From: a virus
Taxonomy: Duplodnaviria > Heunggongvirae > Uroviricota > Caudoviricetes
Reading direction: 5' to 3' (one strand)
DNA: 11,149 nt
Virus record (IMG/VR): IMGVR_UViG_2923302340_000010
Location: 1-11,149 of that record
The notes under the pieces are model-generated. The model had not been told where the DNA came from. It did not search any database and saw nothing but the letters and a program-made list of their open reading frames with translations. Numbering within the stretch: position 1 is the stretch's first letter; every line of letters begins with the position of its first letter. Below, in pieces: positions 2,042 to 9,781 of this stretch. Made by a program: the position numbers and the translations under genes.

Positions 2042-2386
2042 TTAATTTTTGCCATCGTCATTTGTGACCGATGCACATGAGGGCATCCAGTCTTCTGAAT
2101 CCTCTGTCAGTATCACGTTTGAACGCAAGCCATGCTTCGTTTTCCGTTTCATATACTCCCTGCCGTATTCCGCCATTGCCCCTGGCATATCCTTACCGAA
2201 GCGTGTCAGTGTTACGGGCTTACCGAATCCGTGTGCCCTCATATACGCCAGATAGGCGTGATAGAGATACCTGCGCGGGCTGAACGGAATAATTTCAGCA
2301 TTACCCACTAACAGGCCATCGCACATTACCGACGACATGAGATAGCCGCAGAAGTCCACCAGCGAATCGCCCTCGCGTTTTATCAC
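2042..2386 (-). CDS. C-terminal fragment of the P4 alpha-like primase/helicase (putative origin-binding domain), split from the upstream ORF by an in-frame TAG
   Basis: Same reading frame as 2438..3841. The 17 codons between the TAG at 2438..2440 and the GTG at 2386 are open (read-through gives ...LLTRFSD*DEAKRLLYEQQKSEEALVIKREGDS...). The pattern YLYHAYLAYMRAHGFGKPVTLTRFGKDM resembles the conserved C-terminal region of P4-family primases. Weak RBS before the GTG. Confidence 0.6.
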   Translation of the reverse strand: MIKREGDSLVDFCGYLMSSVMCDGLLVGNAEIIPFSPRRYLYHAYLAYMRAHGFGKPVTLTRFGKDMPGAMAEYGREYMKRKTKHGLRSNVILTEDSEDWMPSCASVTNDDGKN

Positions 2387-2437
2387 CAGGGCTTCTTCTG
2401 ATTTCTGCTGCTCATATAGCAGGCGTTTAGCTTCGTC

Positions 2438-3841
2438 CTAGTCAGAAAAGCGTGTAAGCAGGTGGCGAATCACTACCGCCAGCTCTCCTTCTATTTTTTC
2501 AGCCAGCATAGGGTCACGTTCGTTCTCCGGTACAACTTCCGAAAAATTGAATATTACCCGACGACGTGATATCCCACCGCTGCGGTCACTGAATGACATG
2601 GCGTTATTGTTCACCGCCAGCACGACCGCCTGAATGCGTGTTGAGTAGGGGGCTTTATGTTTCGGGTCGATTGCCACCTTATCACCGCCTGTAATGGCCT
2701 TAATCCCTGCACCATCACCAGCGTAACGGGTCATATCCGGCATGATAATCAGCGAAAAGCCAACCACTAACGCACGTTCCCTGGCATCTTCCAGCGCCTT
2801 CATGCTTGCCGATACCGTGTTGGCCTTACCCGCCAGCATAGTGCAAATCTCCGCCATTACGCTTTTACCGCTTCCACCCGGCCCCGTTACCTCAAGAAAT
2901 AACTGCCAGTCGTACCGATTCGCCAGCACCATGAATAACGCCGCCAGTACGCGATCTGCCTTGCGGTCATTCTCAGCCACCGAACGGCGCAACCACTTCC
3001 AGAAATTCGGCGCATGTGTTGCCAGCGTTTCCCCCTCTGCTGGTGGGCTGAAAGGTAATTCACTGGCAATTAACAACCAGTCGTTTTTGTTATGCTCCCG
3101 AAAATTACCAGTTCTGGTATCAAATACCCCGTTACTGAATCCAATCAGGTTACGGGCTGTATTCCCCATTACGGGCAAACTTAACTTCATGGTATCGACC
3201 GCCGATTTGATGGCGTTCTGCGAATAGCTGATTTCCGCATCAATAAAAATCTGCGCCATAGTCCGCTGTAACTCTTTATCCTGTACCGGCTCCCATACAA
3301 CACCGTTGTAGTGGTGAACGGTGTCAGAATCCGCATTGATTGCCAGTTCACCGCCATAATGTGCCAGGAGAACTTCGCCGCGCTGGCTGGCTCCCATCTG
3401 ATTTAGTGCTGGCCTGGGTAGGTCAATATTTTTTGTGGCTAATTTCATCGCTGAAACTTCCCCACTCTCTGCCTGTTCGCGGATCCGTTGCAGGTAGTCG
3501 CGCCAGTTTTCCGGCTCCCGGTCGGTGATACCTTTGTATAATTTCGCGTCCTGTACGCCAGCCAGTGCCAGTTTTTCAGCGATAGCATTGATCTGGATTG
3601 GTTCGATCTCCCCCGCGAGATAGACACGCGCAAAGCGGCGTTCATCGTCGACAATGCGGATATTCGCCAGGTCTGCCAGTTGCTTTGGCCCCAGGTAAAC
3701 AGGTGGTACGTTATCGCCGTGTTTTCGTCCTTCGCTTTCAATCCAGTGTTGAGCATGGGCGTAAGCATCCGTCCCGGCAAAAATGATTACCTCAGTGAAT
3801 TTATCCTTCGGCTGATATTTCAAACTCGGTGCGTTTTTCAC
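2438..3841 (-). CDS. P4 alpha-like primase/helicase (D5/P4-family P-loop NTPase), truncated by an in-frame TAG at 2438..2440
   Basis: 467-aa ORF with Walker A motif GPGGSGKS. GTG start at 3841 is preceded by GGGAGGT and overlaps the stop of the upstream gene (GTGA). Together with 2042..2386 it would make a roughly 600-aa protein. Confidence 0.85.
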   Translation of the reverse strand: MKNAPSLKYQPKDKFTEVIIFAGTDAYAHAQHWIESEGRKHGDNVPPVYLGPKQLADLANIRIVDDERRFARVYLAGEIEPIQINAIAEKLALAGVQDAKLYKGITDREPENWRDYLQRIREQAESGEVSAMKLATKNIDLPRPALNQMGASQRGEVLLAHYGGELAINADSDTVHHYNGVVWEPVQDKELQRTMAQIFIDAEISYSQNAIKSAVDTMKLSLPVMGNTARNLIGFSNGVFDTRTGNFREHNKNDWLLIASELPFSPPAEGETLATHAPNFWKWLRRSVAENDRKADRVLAALFMVLANRYDWQLFLEVTGPGGSGKSVMAEICTMLAGKANTVSASMKALEDARERALVVGFSLIIMPDMTRYAGDGAGIKAITGGDKVAIDPKHKAPYSTRIQAVVLAVNNNAMSFSDRSGGISRRRVIFNFSEVVPENERDPMLAEKIEGELAVVIRHLLTRFSD

Positions 3842-4128
3842 TTCTTACCTCCCGCAACCAACATTGCCCGGATTTTTTTAATATTCGTGGCTGCACGTCT
3901 TGCCACTGCCTGTTGTTTGTTTTCAACCAGAATAAAATCACGCTCAAACTGACGGCGCGGCATTACGCAGTCATATTCGTAAGCCTCACGGCGGTAGGTG
4001 ATATTGCCTGGCGTAACGTGACGAATAACCACTCGTCCCCCACGTCTGGTGTCGCGGTAAATATCGCCGTGTCTGATTTCAGGCCGAGCGGGGCCGCTGG
4101 CAGTAAAGCCAGAATTTTTCTTTTTCAT
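3838..4128 (-). CDS. Hypothetical basic protein (96 aa), coupled to the primase start
   Basis: ATG at 4128, TGA at 3838..3840 overlapping the primase GTG. Arg/Lys-rich; no motif recognised. Confidence 0.55.
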   Translation of the reverse strand: MKKKNSGFTASGPARPEIRHGDIYRDTRRGGRVVIRHVTPGNITYRREAYEYDCVMPRRQFERDFILVENKQQAVARRAATNIKKIRAMLVAGGKK

Positions 4129-4132
4129 GGTT

Positions 4133-4333
4133 TTATTTTCCTGTCAGCAGTTCCGGTTTTATTTCCGCACGAATACAAAGTTCAGAAAAAAATTCAGGAG
4201 AACCAACAATCTCATTACTTTTCAGTCGGCATTGTGATTTCACTTTCCCTTTATCCAGGTAAACCAGTACGCGTCCGGTGAAATCATCTGGCACACTCAG
4301 GGTAATTGTCATTGTTGCTTGCTGATTATCCAT
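4133..4333 (-). CDS. Hypothetical protein (66 aa)
   Basis: ATG at 4333 preceded by a GGGGGTGA SD; overlaps the stop of the upstream gene by 8 nt; TAA at 4133..4135. Confidence 0.5.
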   Translation of the reverse strand: MDNQQATMTITLSVPDDFTGRVLVYLDKGKVKSQCRLKSNEIVGSPEFFSELCIRAEIKPELLTGK

Positions 4334-4691
4334 GATTCACCCCCTGAATAACCTGATAACCGCAACTGGTCAGCAATTCGATAAATTCCGGCAGTGTGCC
4401 GAAACAGCAATCATCACGCATACGTTCGCGGGATACCTCAACGCCGTTTTCGTAGTGACTCACCATGCGTCCAGTAAAATGCAGATCATCATCGTGATGG
4501 CACGTTGACGGCTTAATCAGTCGCGCACGTTCTGCCAGTTCCAGCAATGCTTCAACGCTTCCGGCAATTGCACCATCCGGCAGGTGATAATTACTTACCA
4601 CGCGTCCATTCTCCACGTTGACCAGTAGCTGCCCGGAAAATATCTCGTCAAACTGAATGCTGTTAAGGTCAGAAATTGACAGGTTATGCAT
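4326..4691 (-). CDS. Hypothetical protein (121 aa)
   Basis: ATG at 4691 preceded by CAGGAGGTG at ideal spacing (the track's longer start at 4709 is less likely); 8-nt overlap (ATGCATAA) with the upstream gene's stop. Confidence 0.55.
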   Translation of the reverse strand: MHNLSISDLNSIQFDEIFSGQLLVNVENGRVVSNYHLPDGAIAGSVEALLELAERARLIKPSTCHHDDDLHFTGRMVSHYENGVEVSRERMRDDCCFGTLPEFIELLTSCGYQVIQGVNHG

Positions 4692-4908
4692 GGTGCACCT
4701 CCTGCACATCAGCCATGATAATTTTTCCGGCCTTATCCAGTGCCTGATCGGCTTTTAGCTGCACAAATGCTAAATAATGGGAGATGCATTCTGATTCTCT
4801 GGCTGCGTGTTTATGCGCCACACCAGCGATAGCAGAAATCTCAATAAGTGAATCCATCAGCGTTTTGATAGCGTCTACCGCTGCATCAGGCCATGTTGCA
4901 TTACACAT
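4684..4908 (-). CDS. Hypothetical protein (74 aa)
   Basis: ATG at 4908 preceded by CAGGAGGTGG; overlaps the stop of the upstream gene (ATGTGTAA). Confidence 0.5.
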   Translation of the reverse strand: MCNATWPDAAVDAIKTLMDSLIEISAIAGVAHKHAARESECISHYLAFVQLKADQALDKAGKIIMADVQEVHHA

Positions 4909-5266
4909 GTTCCACCTCCTGGCGAATGCGGGCAGCGAATACCATCACGCAGCCATCAGGAGATTGCTGGCGTGCTTCCTGTTCGCTGGTGGCCTCGATG
5001 TGAATTACACGCGGTTGTGCTGTGCTCAGGGCGATAAAACGCCATATAAAATTGTTTTCGCATTTCTGAATAAACAGCGTGTTTTCTTCGCGCCCTTTCC
5101 ATGTTGCCGAGATATAGCCCATATCATTGAGCATCTTGCAGGCATCCACCAGCGTATCAGCGGCTACGTGTACAGTGTTTTTACCGTCAGCCATGCAATC
5201 ACGGTGCACCGCCAGGAAGGTGTATATAAATTTAGGGTGAGTTTGGGTATGCTGTATTCCAGCCAT
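4901..5266 (-). CDS. Hypothetical protein (121 aa), first gene of the operon leading into the primase
   Basis: Internal ATG at 5266..5264 of the 384-aa track ORF, preceded by GAGGT at about 8 nt. Upstream of it the frame yields low-complexity Ser/Cys-rich sequence and overlaps the plus-strand regulator gene, so the long ORF is an artefact. Confidence 0.55.
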   Translation of the reverse strand: MAGIQHTQTHPKFIYTFLAVHRDCMADGKNTVHVAADTLVDACKMLNDMGYISATWKGREENTLFIQKCENNFIWRFIALSTAQPRVIHIEATSEQEARQQSPDGCVMVFAARIRQEVEHV

Positions 5267-5353
5267 AATCGTTACCTCATTTAACGGTTTGGTTAGAAGC
5301 CCGGTTAGTGTTCGCGCACTGCCGGGTTTCGTCGTTTTTATGAATCGCTCATT

Positions 5354-5455
5354 GTGAGATACATAGCGACCTCCATGTGAGATACACATTATATTGTGGT
5401 GATATACATTGCAAGTGTTTTTATATCTCACTTTTGTGTATAGTGATATACACAT
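5354..5455. promoter_or_regulatory. Phased operator-like repeat array GTGA(G/T)ATACA(CA)T in the divergent intergenic region
   Basis: Direct copies at 5354..5364, 5377..5389, 5399..5409 and 5443..5455, plus an inverted copy ATATCTCAC at 5423..5431, spaced about 22-23 bp apart (two helical turns). A possible extended -10 (TGTGTATAGT, about 5435..5444) faces the plus-strand gene. Confidence 0.5.
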
Positions 5456-5474
5456 AACAAATTGGTGATTAACT

Positions 5475-5777
5475 ATGTCTGTATACAAAAATGCAAAATC
5501 GCAAATGACAACGATCAGGGTTCCCCACGATGTTATGGAGGGCATGGAATCCGTAAAACTGGACGGCGAAAGCAACGCCGGATTCATAGTAACCGCCATG
5601 CGCGGTGAGATCGCTCGCCGCCAGGCAGAAGGAAGAGGAGAAAATCCCCTGGTTTCTTCGCTCGATGCACTGGCGCAGGTGGAAAAAATCGGTGTCAAAG
5701 CTGCCGAGGAGATCGGGCAACTCGTCACCGTCGCGCGTGAAGAACTCCAGCGCCGCAAGGCCAAAGAACAGGAGTAG
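5475..5777 (+). CDS. Small DNA-binding regulator, putative ribbon-helix-helix (CopG/Arc-like) repressor (100 aa)
   Basis: ATG at 5475 with GGTGA 6 nt upstream; TAG at 5775..5777. TTIRVPHDV (beta-strand), then a helix, a NAG turn and a second helix (FIVTAMRGEIARR) fit the RHH pattern; charged helical C-terminus. It is the only convincing plus-strand gene in the element and is divergent from the small-gene operon. Confidence 0.5.
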   Translation: MSVYKNAKSQMTTIRVPHDVMEGMESVKLDGESNAGFIVTAMRGEIARRQAEGRGENPLVSSLDALAQVEKIGVKAAEEIGQLVTVAREELQRRKAKEQE

Positions 5778-6047
5778 TTGATCAGCACCGGGCGACCAGA
5801 AAAAATCGCATCAGTCGCACCACCAGCAAAATTTTTTGCTTTCCGGACAGCGTGACCAACGACATTTTGCAGCAAAATATTCTGCATTTCTGGCGTGCTG
5901 TAGTAACGGTGATCAGCGCCTTCACTCTGTGCGACCACAACGCTATAATCTGCCTCGTAGACAGTAAGCAATATGGCGCAGTAGGCTATTCGTTCACAAA
6001 GGCGCTCCGGCAACGGGGCGCTTTCTCTTTTTGTAACGGTCAGAGCG

Positions 6048-6896
6048 TTACACATGGCTGTTTTCCTCCATGCGGCGGGCTAACCAACGCTGCGAAAGAC
6101 GAATTAATTCAGCTTTCCGCTGGTGGTAGTCCTGGCCTAACTCAATCAGCGTGATATTGCTCTGCTCAAGGTAAGAAAGGTGCTCAAGCTGCAACGTGCT
6201 CATGTGGTCGCGTGGTTCGCCTGTGATGCCGTTCGCCAGTGCCCACTGTTTTGCAGTCATGCCACCCAGCACGATACGCGCCAGCATATTGGCTTCCGTG
6301 GTGTAGTGGTGCTGGAACGTGCTTTTACCCAGTTCAGCCCGGTACGCCTCCAGCGCGGCGCACATCGGCTTAAAGTAGCTGGCAACGGTGATACGGGCTT
6401 TCAGTTCCCGGCGTAACGCTGCGGAACGCACTGGCGCCACCTTGTGTAGATCCTCCTCGCATTTGATGAAATACTGGCGAACGGCGCGGCCTTGTTCGGT
6501 GCGTTCGACCATCGCCAGTTCTTTCGCCATGTTCGTGGAGATCAAATAGTCTTCACTGCGGCGATCACCGCCGCGCTTTGTTGTCCAATCAGAATCAAAC
6601 TGTTCAATATTTACACTTTGGTTCCCCCGTTTCGGGGAATCAAAGTACAAATTTTCTACAACTTCAAAATCCACGCCATTTTTAAATCCGTACTCATCAA
6701 TACGTCCTTTAATCCAGGTAGTGAAATCACGGCCTACCCCGAGCGCCTTATACAACGCTCTGGCGCTAACAATATTGGTTTCACGCCCGCCAATAACGCC
6801 GGAAATAACCGGGATAATTTCGCCAAAATTTTGCAGATTCTGGTTTTCAGGCCGAACGAAGCCCTGCCCCTGTACGGGCGTTTTTGGAAATTTCAT
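6048..6896 (-). CDS. Phage antirepressor-like protein with N-terminal AntA/Bro-N-type domain (282 aa)
   Basis: ATG at 6896 preceded by AGGAG; TAA at 6048..6050. ALYKALGVGRDFTTWIKGRIDEYGF and NMAKELAMVERTEQGRAVRQYFIKCEE match the conserved blocks of phage Ant/Bro-N antirepressor N-domains as I recall them. Confidence 0.7.
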   Translation of the reverse strand: MKFPKTPVQGQGFVRPENQNLQNFGEIIPVISGVIGGRETNIVSARALYKALGVGRDFTTWIKGRIDEYGFKNGVDFEVVENLYFDSPKRGNQSVNIEQFDSDWTTKRGGDRRSEDYLISTNMAKELAMVERTEQGRAVRQYFIKCEEDLHKVAPVRSAALRRELKARITVASYFKPMCAALEAYRAELGKSTFQHHYTTEANMLARIVLGGMTAKQWALANGITGEPRDHMSTLQLEHLSYLEQSNITLIELGQDYHQRKAELIRLSQRWLARRMEENSHV

Positions 6897-6973: not shown

Positions 6974-7171
6974 TCAGGTAGCTGTTCCGCGTGATTCTGC
7001 AATACGCTGATTAATCCACTCGTCAATTTCACTCTCAACGAAAGCAATCGCTCGCGAGCCAATTTTAACTGATGCAGGAAATTTACCTTGCCCCATAAGG
7101 CGATAAATCCATGCCTTGCTATATCCAGTTCTACGCTGAACTTCTGTTAAACGAATAAGCGTATTTGACAT
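6974..7171 (-). CDS. alpA: AlpA-family phage regulatory protein (MerR-like HTH; excisionase/transcriptional activator type, 65 aa)
   Basis: LTEVQRRTGYSKAWIYRLMGQGKFP...ESEIDEWINQR matches the AlpA/Vis family pattern (HTH followed by EIDEW). ATG at 7171 preceded by GAGGT; TGA at 6974..6976. Confidence 0.85.
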   Translation of the reverse strand: MSNTLIRLTEVQRRTGYSKAWIYRLMGQGKFPASVKIGSRAIAFVESEIDEWINQRIAESRGTAT

Positions 7172-8196: not shown

Positions 8197-8324
8197 ACGC
8201 ACACCTCAGCGTCCTCTACTGTAGTGGCTGTACCAGTCCGTCGAGGTGTACGGATTTTCGGGAGCGACCCTAGACACAGCCTTTTCTTTCGTCGCTCAAA
8301 GTCTACTACTGTATACTCAACCAG

Positions 8325-9539
8325 TCACCCGCATTTTCCGAACTCACCATGCACCACATTTCCGCCATGCTCGAGCGAATCCATATAGTCGGCATACCAC
8401 TGGAGCATCTCCCGGCGACCATCCAGATATTGCGCATGGTTGTATGTGCCACGAATTGAGTTTTTATCGACGTGTGCAAGCTGTGTCTCTATCCACGCGG
8501 TGTTATAGCCCTGCTCATGCAAAATGGTGCTCATGGTGTGCCGGAATCCATGACCAGTAACCTTTCCGTTATAGCCGATGCGTTTAAATACTTGGTTTAT
8601 GCTAGCCTCGCTCATTGTTTTCCTTGGATCATTACGGCCGGGAAACATAAGCGGATAATTGCCAGTTAATTCTTTAATCTGCCCAATAAGCGAAAGAGCC
8701 TGCTTAGACAAAGGCACCACATGAGGGCGACGCATTTTCATCCGTGAAGCAGGTATCTCCCAGATAGCCTTGTTGAGATCGATTTCATCCCATAATGCAC
8801 CGCGCAGTTCGCCAGTCCGCAAACCGGTGATAATCAGTAGACGAGCCGCCATAACAACCAATGCACTTCCTGAGTAACTGGACAATGCCTTGAAAAAATC
8901 AGGTAATTCTTTGGCTGTGAGGAAAGGATAATGATTAGATTCATGACCTTGCATCGCGCTGGTGAGATCCGGTGCAGGGTTATACTCAGCACGTCCAGTG
9001 ACAATTGCATAGCGGAAAACCTCCCCGCATCGCTGCCTCACTTTTTTGGCTTTTTCGGTAGCACCGCGCCCCTCGATGCGCCGCAGCACATTCAGCAGTT
9101 CAAGTGGTTTGATTTCGGCGATTGGTTTTTTGCCAATGTAAGGGAACACATCTTTGTTGAAGGCTTCGAGGATGTCTGAAGCATAACCAGCAGACCATTT
9201 TTTTAATTTGCTGCTGTGCCACTCAAGGGCAATATCTTTGAAGGTGTTGTTTAACTGCGTTTCCCGGGCAATCTTTTCCTCTCGTTTCGCTTCCATCGGA
9301 TCGATACCCCCAGCGATACCCCTTTTAGCTTCTTCACGTTTTGCACGAGCATCAGCCAAGGTAACTTCAGGATACACACCTAGTGCTAACAGCTTCTCTT
9401 TACCAGCTACACGATACTTGAAGCGCCAATATTTTCCTCCACTAGGTTTTACCAAGAGATACAGACCGCCACCATCAGCCAGCTTGTAAGCCTTCTCTTT
9501 TGGCTTGGCAGTGTCTATTTGACGGGCATTGAGTTTCAC
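8325..9539 (-). CDS. int: P4-type tyrosine site-specific integrase (404 aa)
   Basis: N-terminal arm-binding-type region (LNARQIDTAKPKEK...GGLYLLVKPSGGKYWRFKYR), catalytic R in GLRTGELRG, H-x-x-R in HGFRHT, and a C-terminal Tyr in RGTYNH. GTG start at 9539 preceded by GGAGGT. Lies directly beside the tRNA 3' end. Confidence 0.95.
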   Translation of the reverse strand: MKLNARQIDTAKPKEKAYKLADGGGLYLLVKPSGGKYWRFKYRVAGKEKLLALGVYPEVTLADARAKREEAKRGIAGGIDPMEAKREEKIARETQLNNTFKDIALEWHSSKLKKWSAGYASDILEAFNKDVFPYIGKKPIAEIKPLELLNVLRRIEGRGATEKAKKVRQRCGEVFRYAIVTGRAEYNPAPDLTSAMQGHESNHYPFLTAKELPDFFKALSSYSGSALVVMAARLLIITGLRTGELRGALWDEIDLNKAIWEIPASRMKMRRPHVVPLSKQALSLIGQIKELTGNYPLMFPGRNDPRKTMSEASINQVFKRIGYNGKVTGHGFRHTMSTILHEQGYNTAWIETQLAHVDKNSIRGTYNHAQYLDGRREMLQWYADYMDSLEHGGNVVHGEFGKCG

Positions 9540-9705: not shown

Positions 9706-9781
9706 TGGTGCCGATAATAGGAGTCGAACCTACGACCTTCGCATTACGAATGCGCTGCTCTACCAACTGAGCTATATCGGC
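9706..9781 (-). tRNA. thrW: tRNA-Thr (anticodon CGU)
   Basis: The reverse complement reads GCCGATATAGCTCAGTTGGTAGAGCAGCGCATTCGTAATGCGAAGGTCGTAGGTTCGACTCCTATTATCGGCACCA: 76 nt, cloverleaf-compatible, anticodon loop TTCGTAA, encoded CCA. Position downstream of proA matches the E. coli proA-thrW arrangement. Confidence 0.95.

Follow-up and report, generated by a model that had tools for sequence, protein, structure and literature searches.

What reads an array of five evenly phased repeats that separates a small rightward gene from a leftward operon running into a primase-helicase? This arrangement is found in a stretch of viral DNA of 11,149 nucleotides (IMG/VR record IMGVR_UViG_2923302340_000010, Caudoviricetes; the whole stretch is called the window below), which appears to carry an integrative satellite resembling the phage-inducible chromosomal islands (PICIs). 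Gram-negative PICIs have been described as unidirectional and as having no clear global repressor (PMC6092414). For the window, the initial annotation had proposed a ribbon-helix-helix (RHH)-like regulator facing the operon, with the repeats serving either as repressor sites or as iterons. Here we argue that the small gene, a member of the YlcI/YnfO family, very probably encodes an RHH repressor and that the repeats are its predicted operators, given their position over two promoters and the covariation of their sequence with the first 16 residues of the protein.

Five phased sites overlap two predicted divergent promoters

The sequence GTGAKATACA, allowing at most one mismatch, occurs on the plus strand at 5354-5363, 5377-5386, 5399-5408 and 5443-5452 and on the minus strand at 5422-5431 (one mismatch), that is, as four direct copies and one inverted copy. 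This phased array at 22-23 bp, as first described, is real: a scan of the whole 11-kb window gave six matches, the sixth (1218-1227) being unrelated, against 0.91 expected by chance, and none of 200 dinucleotide-preserving shuffles reached six. A repeat search independently recovered the direct copies with spacings of 23 and 22 bp, and the centres of the five sites, taken on the 9-bp core TG-N5-CA (5359, 5382, 5404, 5426 and 5448), lie 23, 22, 22 and 22 bp apart. The array is flanked on one side by the regulator gene, a plus-strand open reading frame (ORF) of 100 aa (5475-5777), and on the other by the minus-strand operon, whose first gene (4901-5266) encodes an Icd-like protein and which does run into the primase. 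The divergent layout of the initial annotation was therefore correct, save that the ATG of the operon lies at 5266 and not at 5267.

Related loci, 98 in number, came from Escherichia, Salmonella-like, Enterobacter, Klebsiella, Cronobacter, Serratia, Erwinia, Edwardsiella, Xenorhabdus and Photorhabdus genomes and from viral contigs, and their 38 distinct upstream regions were used for de novo motif finding. In every lineage the most repeated 9-mer lies at about -120, -98, -76, -54 and -31 from the ATG of the regulator, so that the repeats are, as had been asked of them, conserved at the same positions across these Enterobacterales loci; all five positions are occupied in most lineages, and in some classes the 9-mer search finds three or four. 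The orientation of the sites varies by lineage (+++-+ in the window, +-+-+ in Cronobacter), which fits near-symmetric sites bound by a symmetric dimer. Between the window and an Enterobacter locus (L025) with a regulator 77% identical and sites of the same class, identity is 89% within the sites and 61% in the stretches separating them. Two candidates were discarded. A sixth site was considered at 5220-5230 (GTGTATATAAA), close to the antisense-RNA promoter described below, but was dropped as coincidental coding sequence, being unconserved in L025, and a LexA box, considered by analogy with symE, does not agree by eye with operators that read GTG...CAC rather than CTG...CAG.

Read as 11-bp units, the five putative operators coincide with promoter elements on both strands. 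The leftward promoter P_L (5388-5415, minus strand) consists of a -35 element CTTGCA (5415-5410), a 16-nt spacer and a -10 element TATAAT (5393-5388), matching 9/12, and is predicted to drive the Icd-like-to-primase operon. In 13 of 15 lineages the best minus-strand sigma-70 match is found at the same place, with the -35 from about -62 and the -10 from about -85 (for example TTGACA-17-TAAAGT). The regulator's own promoter, P_R, has its -10 element TATAGT at 5439-5444 on the plus strand, and a TATAAT-like hexamer stands at -35 to -37 in most lineages scanned; an extended -10 was rejected for P_R because the TG is out of register. O3 (GTGATATACAT, 5399-5409, plus strand) fills the P_L spacer between -35 and -10, O2 (GTGAGATACAC, 5377-5387, plus) lies inside a pseudo-palindrome ATGTG-N5-CACAT, abuts the P_L -10 and covers the predicted P_L start, and O1 (GTGAGATACAT, 5354-5364, plus) corresponds to about +17 to +27 of the leftward transcript. 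On the other side, the inverted copy O4 (GTGAGATATAA, 5421-5431, minus) is located in the P_R spacer and O5 (GTGATATACAC, 5443-5453, plus) overlaps the end of the P_R -10 and the predicted P_R start.

This overlap with the core elements of P_L and P_R fits repression plus autoregulation, and the consequence of binding would quite probably be repression of the replication operon together with control by the regulator of its own gene. A competing view is that the RHH protein only autoregulates, or activates P_L, and that AlpA and the antisense RNA alone govern silencing and induction of the operon. The -35 of P_R is weak, as this view would expect, and some RHH proteins, such as AmrZ, are generally known to be able to activate. 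AlpA, moreover, is a demonstrated activator in Gram-negative PICIs (PMC6092414, PMC11773190). However, O1-O3 stand at repressing positions (downstream of P_L, at its start and in its spacer) and this layout is conserved in all lineages, so we regard a purely autoregulatory or activating role as unlikely, if still deserving attention.

Site sequences follow the N-terminal arm and strand of the regulator

The sequences of the sites fall into seven classes by lineage, to which all 98 loci could be assigned: class A (TGAGATACA / TGATATACA; this window and L025), class B (TGTGTTTCA / TGTATTTCA; L003, L006 and L023), class C (GTGTAAG; L002, L019 and L028), class D (GTGTGTATTTA; L007 and L010), class E (GGTGTGTACA; L016), class F (GGTATTCA; L011 and L013) and class G (TGTGATTYA; L022 and L026). 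Within each lineage all five sites change in concert, which requires a shared trans-acting factor. RHH proteins such as Arc and MetJ contact DNA through the N-terminal arm and the β-strand. The corresponding part of the regulator, codons 1-16 (5475-5522, plus strand), aligns to the Arc β-strand and varies between operator classes (residues 1-16 of class B read MATSNKNAKSQLTTVRV). Over the segment compared, which runs from P17 to about residue 54, class A and class B regulators are identical and class C shows a single difference; up to about residue 54, the remaining differences among the three classes are confined to residues 1-16.

For four unseen proteins the β-strand sequence was used to predict the operator class; the prediction was correct each time, and no other class was present. 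A recognition code of three residues (11, 13 and 15) also predicted classes correctly, and was rejected as too simple because most of the difference between classes A and B is in the N-terminal arm, their strands showing only the conservative changes M/L and I/V. On this evidence the predicted regulator is highly likely to bind the five sites. The idea that elements of the same class exclude each other from one host finds no support in the single case observed, in which L008 and L009, both class B, are co-resident. These are two whole modules (regulator, operators and RNA) within about 5 kb of a single Xenorhabdus vietnamensis contig, and their sites have slightly diverged.

The regulator has a predicted RHH fold

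The regulator scores 71.2 bits (cut-off 30) over residues 8-49 against the NCBIfam model NF041551 (YlcI_YnfO_N), which places it in the YlcI/YnfO family; it also matches phrog_6522, and RefSeq names it 'YlcI/YnfO family protein' in a 99.7% identical locus of E. coli EC23-1020. The family is narrow, with 33 cluster representatives among 1.84 billion, and our literature search found no functional work on YlcI, YnfO or DUF3950, nor on RHH proteins or SymR in satellites. The protein divides into an N-terminal RHH domain (residues 1-54), a short linker and a C-terminal helix (58-99). In the AlphaFold2 (AF2) model of the N-terminal domain (pLDDT, the model's own confidence score, 88), an extended segment (residues 11-17) is followed by helices at 18-27 and 34-51, giving the β-α-α fold of about 45 residues that characterizes the RHH superfamily. 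Hallmarks of the superfamily are present as well, namely the inter-helix turn G31-E32-S33 and R15-V16-P17 with its proline after the strand, and R15, P17 and E32 are invariant in the regulator alignment (A4). Residues 58-99 are modelled as a single long helix with a hydrophobic stripe, which makes the overall predicted architecture Mnt-like. By its modelled structure, though not by sequence threshold, the regulator is an RHH protein. An hhalign comparison with Arc gave a probability of 59%, while neither phmmer against the PDB nor a tblastn scan of 50,697 phage records returned a match, and padloc matched neither the regulator nor the Icd-like protein to a defence system.

In E. coli K-12, ylcI of the DLP12 prophage (L111) is divergent from nohD, a terminase small-subunit homologue, across a gap of 388 bp (3447-3834) where a cos site is expected, and CATCTAC occurs twice upstream of it, 21 nt apart. 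Short YlcI/YnfO proteins of this kind may also be RHH regulators with phased sites.

A predicted SymR-like antisense RNA at the Icd-like translation start

The protein-based control initially proposed is upheld by the RHH regulator and its operators, but it does not appear to be protein-only. Covariation, strand bias and a covariance model together predict a SymR-like cis-antisense RNA of about 79 nt on the plus strand (5261-5339), conserved in the gap that separates the operators from the Icd-like gene. Sixteen diverse sequences, once aligned, yield three helices, with 97.6% of cells paired: an outer helix (5262-5265/5290-5293), stem-loop 1 (5270-5274/5282-5286) with an anti-Shine-Dalgarno CCUC in its loop, and a terminator stem (5296-5309/5318-5330) followed by a U-run (5335-5339). 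Compensatory changes occur in 9 of the 21 pairs, no shuffle out of 500 reaches any of the observed measures, and slid controls pair at just 32-48%. The predicted RNA is perfectly complementary to the Icd-like translation start (Shine-Dalgarno sequence and start codon), and the -10 element of its promoter (TATGCT, 5248-5253, plus strand) is embedded in Icd-like codons 5-7.

The promoter of the RNA is conserved in its geometry. In 28 of 28 distinct sequences, K-12 symR included, a TAnnnT ends exactly 7 nt before an invariant +1 A, a distance kept regardless of where the start codon is and even where the N-terminal codons are unrelated, and an extended TG is found beside it in 14 of the 28. The symR promoter, with the geometry TAGAAT-7 nt-A, is experimentally proven (PMC1891008). 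A covariance model built from satellite sequences only (R1) was searched against 41 related loci: 40 have one strong plus-strand match (48-91 bits) at the corresponding position, and the partial locus L012 has none. The model also matches E. coli K-12 symR exactly at its annotated 5' end (27.1 bits, E 2e-5). The RNA has, by sequence, the defining features of SymR: it is cis-antisense to a ribosome-binding site and start codon, with its promoter in the first codons of the target, two stem-loops and an intrinsic terminator. We consider it likely that this RNA exists and acts as described, that it is a distant SymR relative below the Rfam membership threshold, and that, by analogy, it would act on the start of Icd-like translation.

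The same hairpins might instead act within the leader of the leftward mRNA, as structure of the 5' untranslated region or as a protective terminator, with no separate antisense RNA. The complement of any hairpin folds too, and the U-run is imperfect in some lineages. Nevertheless, pairing is biased toward the plus strand, with 97.6% of cells paired against 81.5% on the minus strand and 55 G-U pairs against one, and a leader structure would leave unexplained both the invariant TAnnnT-7 nt-A with its frequent extended TG and the agreement of geometry and 5' end with the experimentally proven SymR (PMC1891008). We judge it quite unlikely that the hairpins serve the leader alone.

Two further stretches resemble RNA features of this kind. 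In L025 (Enterobacter ludwigii) a second SymR-like copy (2338-2420, plus strand; 61.7 bits with R1) is located about 600 nt downstream of the regulator and not beside an obvious Icd-like gene. In the window, just past the antA/B stop codon, a promoter-like TTCACT-17-TATAAT (5921-5949, plus strand; 10/12) precedes a strong terminator-like hairpin (5999-6024) and a T-run, and this stretch (5921-6034) may represent a bidirectional terminator or encode a further small RNA on the plus strand.

The array does not follow the neighbouring genes

The alpA and Icd-like genes are nearby, and relatives of the Icd-like protein (phrog_6196 and phrog_1743) are labelled 'transcriptional repressor' in PHROGs, so either product might be thought to bind the sites. 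Against this, regulator and upstream region are identical in L013 and L014 while their AlpA proteins are only 36-46% identical, and operator class does not follow the identity of the Icd-like protein: proteins 88-90% identical stand beside different classes, and within one class identity goes down to 29-38%. Binding by a linked protein other than the regulator is therefore very improbable.

Phased direct repeats beside a replication operon look iteron-like, and repeats do occur in P4 and PICI origins (PMC6092414), which is the case for taking the array as a replication origin bound by the primase-helicase/initiator, with the small gene incidental to it. Iterons would be expected to covary with their cognate initiator, and these repeats do not. 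The replicases of L016 and L024 are 98% identical, and those of L019 and L022 96% identical, yet in both pairs the repeats differ, whereas L023 and L024 share repeats and have replicases only 51% identical; the same array adjoins replicases of the D5_N/DUF5906, DUF927 and AAA_25 types. In addition, the sites coincide with promoter elements, and in PICIs the origin is located 3' of the initiator gene (PMC6092414). Since the sites track regulator residues 1-16 and not the replicase, AlpA or the Icd-like protein, they are better understood as operators than as iterons, to which we give hardly any credence; of the two functions initially offered for the repeats, promoter overlap and covariation with residues 1-16 thus favour repressor sites. 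A partition-type centromere module, of the kind formed by ParG or omega, is scarcely credible, as the window and related loci have no ParA-type ATPase gene nearby, the element is integrative (integrase, tRNA-Thr) and the sites coincide with promoters.

The element and its surroundings

The Icd-like protein of the window scores 81 bits against NF033153 (cut-off 25; this model was scored on the window protein alone), and its sequence motif was recognized by eye in the first gene of the operon in 15 of 15 lineages. The rest of the leftward operon (2438-4908, minus strand) comprises ORFs of 74, 127 and 66 aa, a DUF4222 protein and the D5_N/DUF5906 primase-helicase (2438-3841, minus). The latter is shortened by an in-frame amber codon at 2438-2440 (minus strand; LLTRFSD*DEAKRLL), where relatives have Q, so that a protein of about 605 aa is split into ORFs of 467 and 114 aa; the element may be replication-defective, or the amber codon may be a sequencing error.

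To the right of the regulator, all on the minus strand, are a gene of the AntA/B antirepressor family (6048-6896), AlpA (6974-7171), an ORF of 267 aa, a tyrosine integrase (8325-9539) and a tRNA-Thr (9709-9781) next to proA. The padloc candidate defence model PDC-S22 is matched (E 5e-9) by the C-terminal part of the AntA/B-family protein (residues 188-271). An int-alpA RNA motif (RF02996; 45.5 bits, gathering threshold 35.8) is found upstream of AlpA at 8213-8280 on the minus strand, in the gap that separates the integrase from the 267-aa ORF; the copy in L007 is weaker, at 34.8 bits. Among the relatives the constant order is integrase, AlpA, sometimes Ant/Bro, and the plus-strand regulator facing small genes, DUF4222 and a replicase of variable type. 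An obligatory antirepressor partner was ruled out, AntA/B or Bro genes being absent from many loci that bear the module.

With its integrase, AlpA, primase and tRNA site and with no structural or lysis genes, the element looks like a Gram-negative PICI, as far as the window extends, which ends before the far end of the island. The tRNA-Thr site is the integration site of the characterised satellite EcCIMP1 (PMC11773190). Neither psu, sid nor delta was present in the window or in the 7-kb flank of its closest E. coli relative (L001), and TIGR01613 scored 90.9 bits against a cut-off of 108.7. The operon had been assigned to a satellite, which is sustained, and the sequence evidence points to a PICI-like satellite of the EcCIMP1 neighbourhood rather than to a classical P4.

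In the 99.7% identical locus of EC23-1020 the regulator and the operon are annotated alike. A match is carried by 525 of 5,426 complete E. coli genomes, and in only 45 of the 525 does it extend across the intergenic region, which gave a first hint that this region varies. Compared with EC23-1020, identity is 97.5% across the control region (4331-6534) and 86% across the primase region (2154-3853), a mosaic that fits modular exchange. The segment 774-2153, between a ProQ/FinO-like gene and the primase, has no counterpart in L001 and looks like an accessory-gene hotspot; it includes a minus-strand ORF of 111 aa (892-1227) with 31% GC that is membrane-protein-like and has no padloc match.

A model for the module

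We propose that the regulator is an Arc/Mnt-like repressor whose dimers would insert their paired β-strands, aided by the arm (residues 1-16), into the major groove of the five 11-bp pseudo-palindromic operators. The 22-bp spacing would place the operators on one face of the DNA, and adjacent dimers are probably joined through the long C-terminal helix, in the way of the C-terminal domain of Mnt, which would make binding cooperative. With O3 in the P_L spacer, O2 over the P_L start, O1 just downstream, and O4 and O5 at the matching positions of P_R, an occupied array would shut off the Icd-like-to-primase operon and autoregulate the repressor. A second lock would act on the leader of the P_L transcript, where a constitutive, rightward-transcribed RNA of about 79 nt would block Icd-like translation and/or trigger cleavage, as SymR does on symE. 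Release might come from the AlpA-driven AntA/B antirepressor of the satellite or from a helper-phage protein, which is speculation. Taken as a whole, with an RHH repressor, five operators, an antisense RNA lock and a role as quiescence switch, we find this model rather likely.

Several points weigh against the model. No Pfam family matches the regulator above threshold. The predicted fold, the turn and the proline bear out the RHH assignment of the initial annotation, and its profile matches stay below the Pfam cut-offs (best E 0.02-0.03), with PSK_trans_fac at E 0.02 (16 bits against 28.3) and RHH_1 at E 0.032 (one member); in the PDB profile search Arc is the top match at a marginal E of 0.15. 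The AF2 monomer lacks the β-strand, as expected of an obligate dimer, yet this gives no positive evidence for one. P_L has in the window a 16-nt spacer and matches the -35 consensus at 4/6, and the -35 of P_R is T-rich as well as weak, which may leave P_R in need of an activator. Only 22-120 bp separate the operators from codons 1-16, and their covariation could partly reflect physical linkage. The Rfam SymR model (RF01809) matches the plus strand at 5261-5333 over its full length at 35.7 bits, below the gathering threshold of 61, as are the matches at the equivalent place in L003 (38.7), L002 (32) and L022 (28.9 bits). Finally, DNA binding, the sign of the regulation, cooperativity through the C-terminal helix and the existence and action of the RNA are all inferred.

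A bolder version, which we offer tentatively and which may well prove wrong, is that the YlcI-like RHH protein is the master repressor that had been missing from a large class of Gram-negative phage satellites, a class that about 10% of complete E. coli genomes carry. The five operators and codons 1-16 would then form a swappable cassette of about 170 bp setting at least seven immunity types without cross-reaction among them, a second lock on a toxic Icd-like gene would be provided by a SymR-family RNA, and release would be due to AlpA-driven AntA/B or to a helper-phage protein that binds the conserved C-terminal helix. If so, chromosomal symER would descend from a mobile-element module of this kind.

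The proposal gives YlcI/YnfO, a family with members in E. coli K-12, a concrete and testable function and a binding site. It would also mean that a divergent repressor-operator module heads the replication operon in hundreds of genomes and is interchangeable with C4-type RNA immunity. The natural specificity swaps, involving 16 residues and five operators, could serve for the study of RHH-DNA recognition and for building orthogonal repressor-operator pairs, and the likeness to SymR ties a chromosomal RNA of the type I toxin-antitoxin kind to mobile elements.

Comparison with known systems

EcCIMP1 has no YlcI gene and no match to R1. Directly upstream of its Icd-like gene, inside an ash pseudogene, it carries matches to C4 (81 bits, gathering threshold 45) and isrK (69 bits, threshold 50), while C4 and isrK (RF01695 and RF01394) have no match in the window at E up to 1, EcCIMP1 serving as positive control. 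As first suspected, the control module is thus unlike the RNA immunity of P4. From sequence comparison, two interchangeable modules appear to precede the same Icd-like-to-replicase operon: RNA immunity of the P1/P4 type, or a SymR-like RNA joined to an RHH repressor and its five operators. The C4/CI RNAs of P1, P4 and many Gram-negative PICIs occupy the same place, at the head of the early or replication operon and directly before the Icd-like gene (PMC10111431), with the same presumed role of silencing it. They differ in mechanism, a processed trans-acting RNA causing premature termination in one case, and a DNA-binding protein with a cis-antisense RNA in the other. This positional equivalence is the main argument for a module that sets the quiescence of the satellite, and its quiescence (immunity) switch is most likely what the module is.

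In function the module would most resemble, by analogy, immI of phage P22 and the layered LexA/SymR control of symE. P22 immI, which comprises the RHH repressors Arc and Mnt plus the sar antisense RNA, has one 21-bp operator, whereas the window has five sites at 22-bp spacing; its target is ant, and that of the window is a satellite replication operon headed by an Icd-like gene. The similarity of the P22 repressors to the window regulator is the marginal one with Arc given above, and the window RNA resembles SymR and not sar, for which Rfam gave no match. SymR of K-12 is likewise a cis-antisense RNA, of about 77-80 nt, with its promoter embedded in the first codons of its target (PMC1891008). 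The two RNAs share a -10 TAnnnT 7 nt before an A start, a UGUGRUUAG linker, two stem-loops and a 5' end AGYCAU that complements the start codon, and covariance-model matches between them are weak both ways, window-type RNAs scoring 29-39 bits against a threshold of 61. The symE promoter is also under a protein repressor, a layered control as in the window, but there the target is SymE, the repressor is LexA and the locus is chromosomal, whereas the window pairs an Icd-like target with an RHH protein and five operators on a mobile satellite.

The modelled fold of the regulator is like that of the RHH proteins CopG, omega and Arc. The omega repressor of pSM19035 reads contiguous heptads, in contrast to 11-bp units that lie 11-12 bp apart, with two helical turns per spacing, and the window regulator has an extra 42-residue helix. 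Stl and Rpr of Gram-positive PICIs are helix-turn-helix proteins, unrelated in fold to the window regulator, and no helper-encoded antirepressor is known for the window module. In those islands, as here, a divergent regulator faces the satellite replication operon, with a proposed role in quiescence (PMC6092414).

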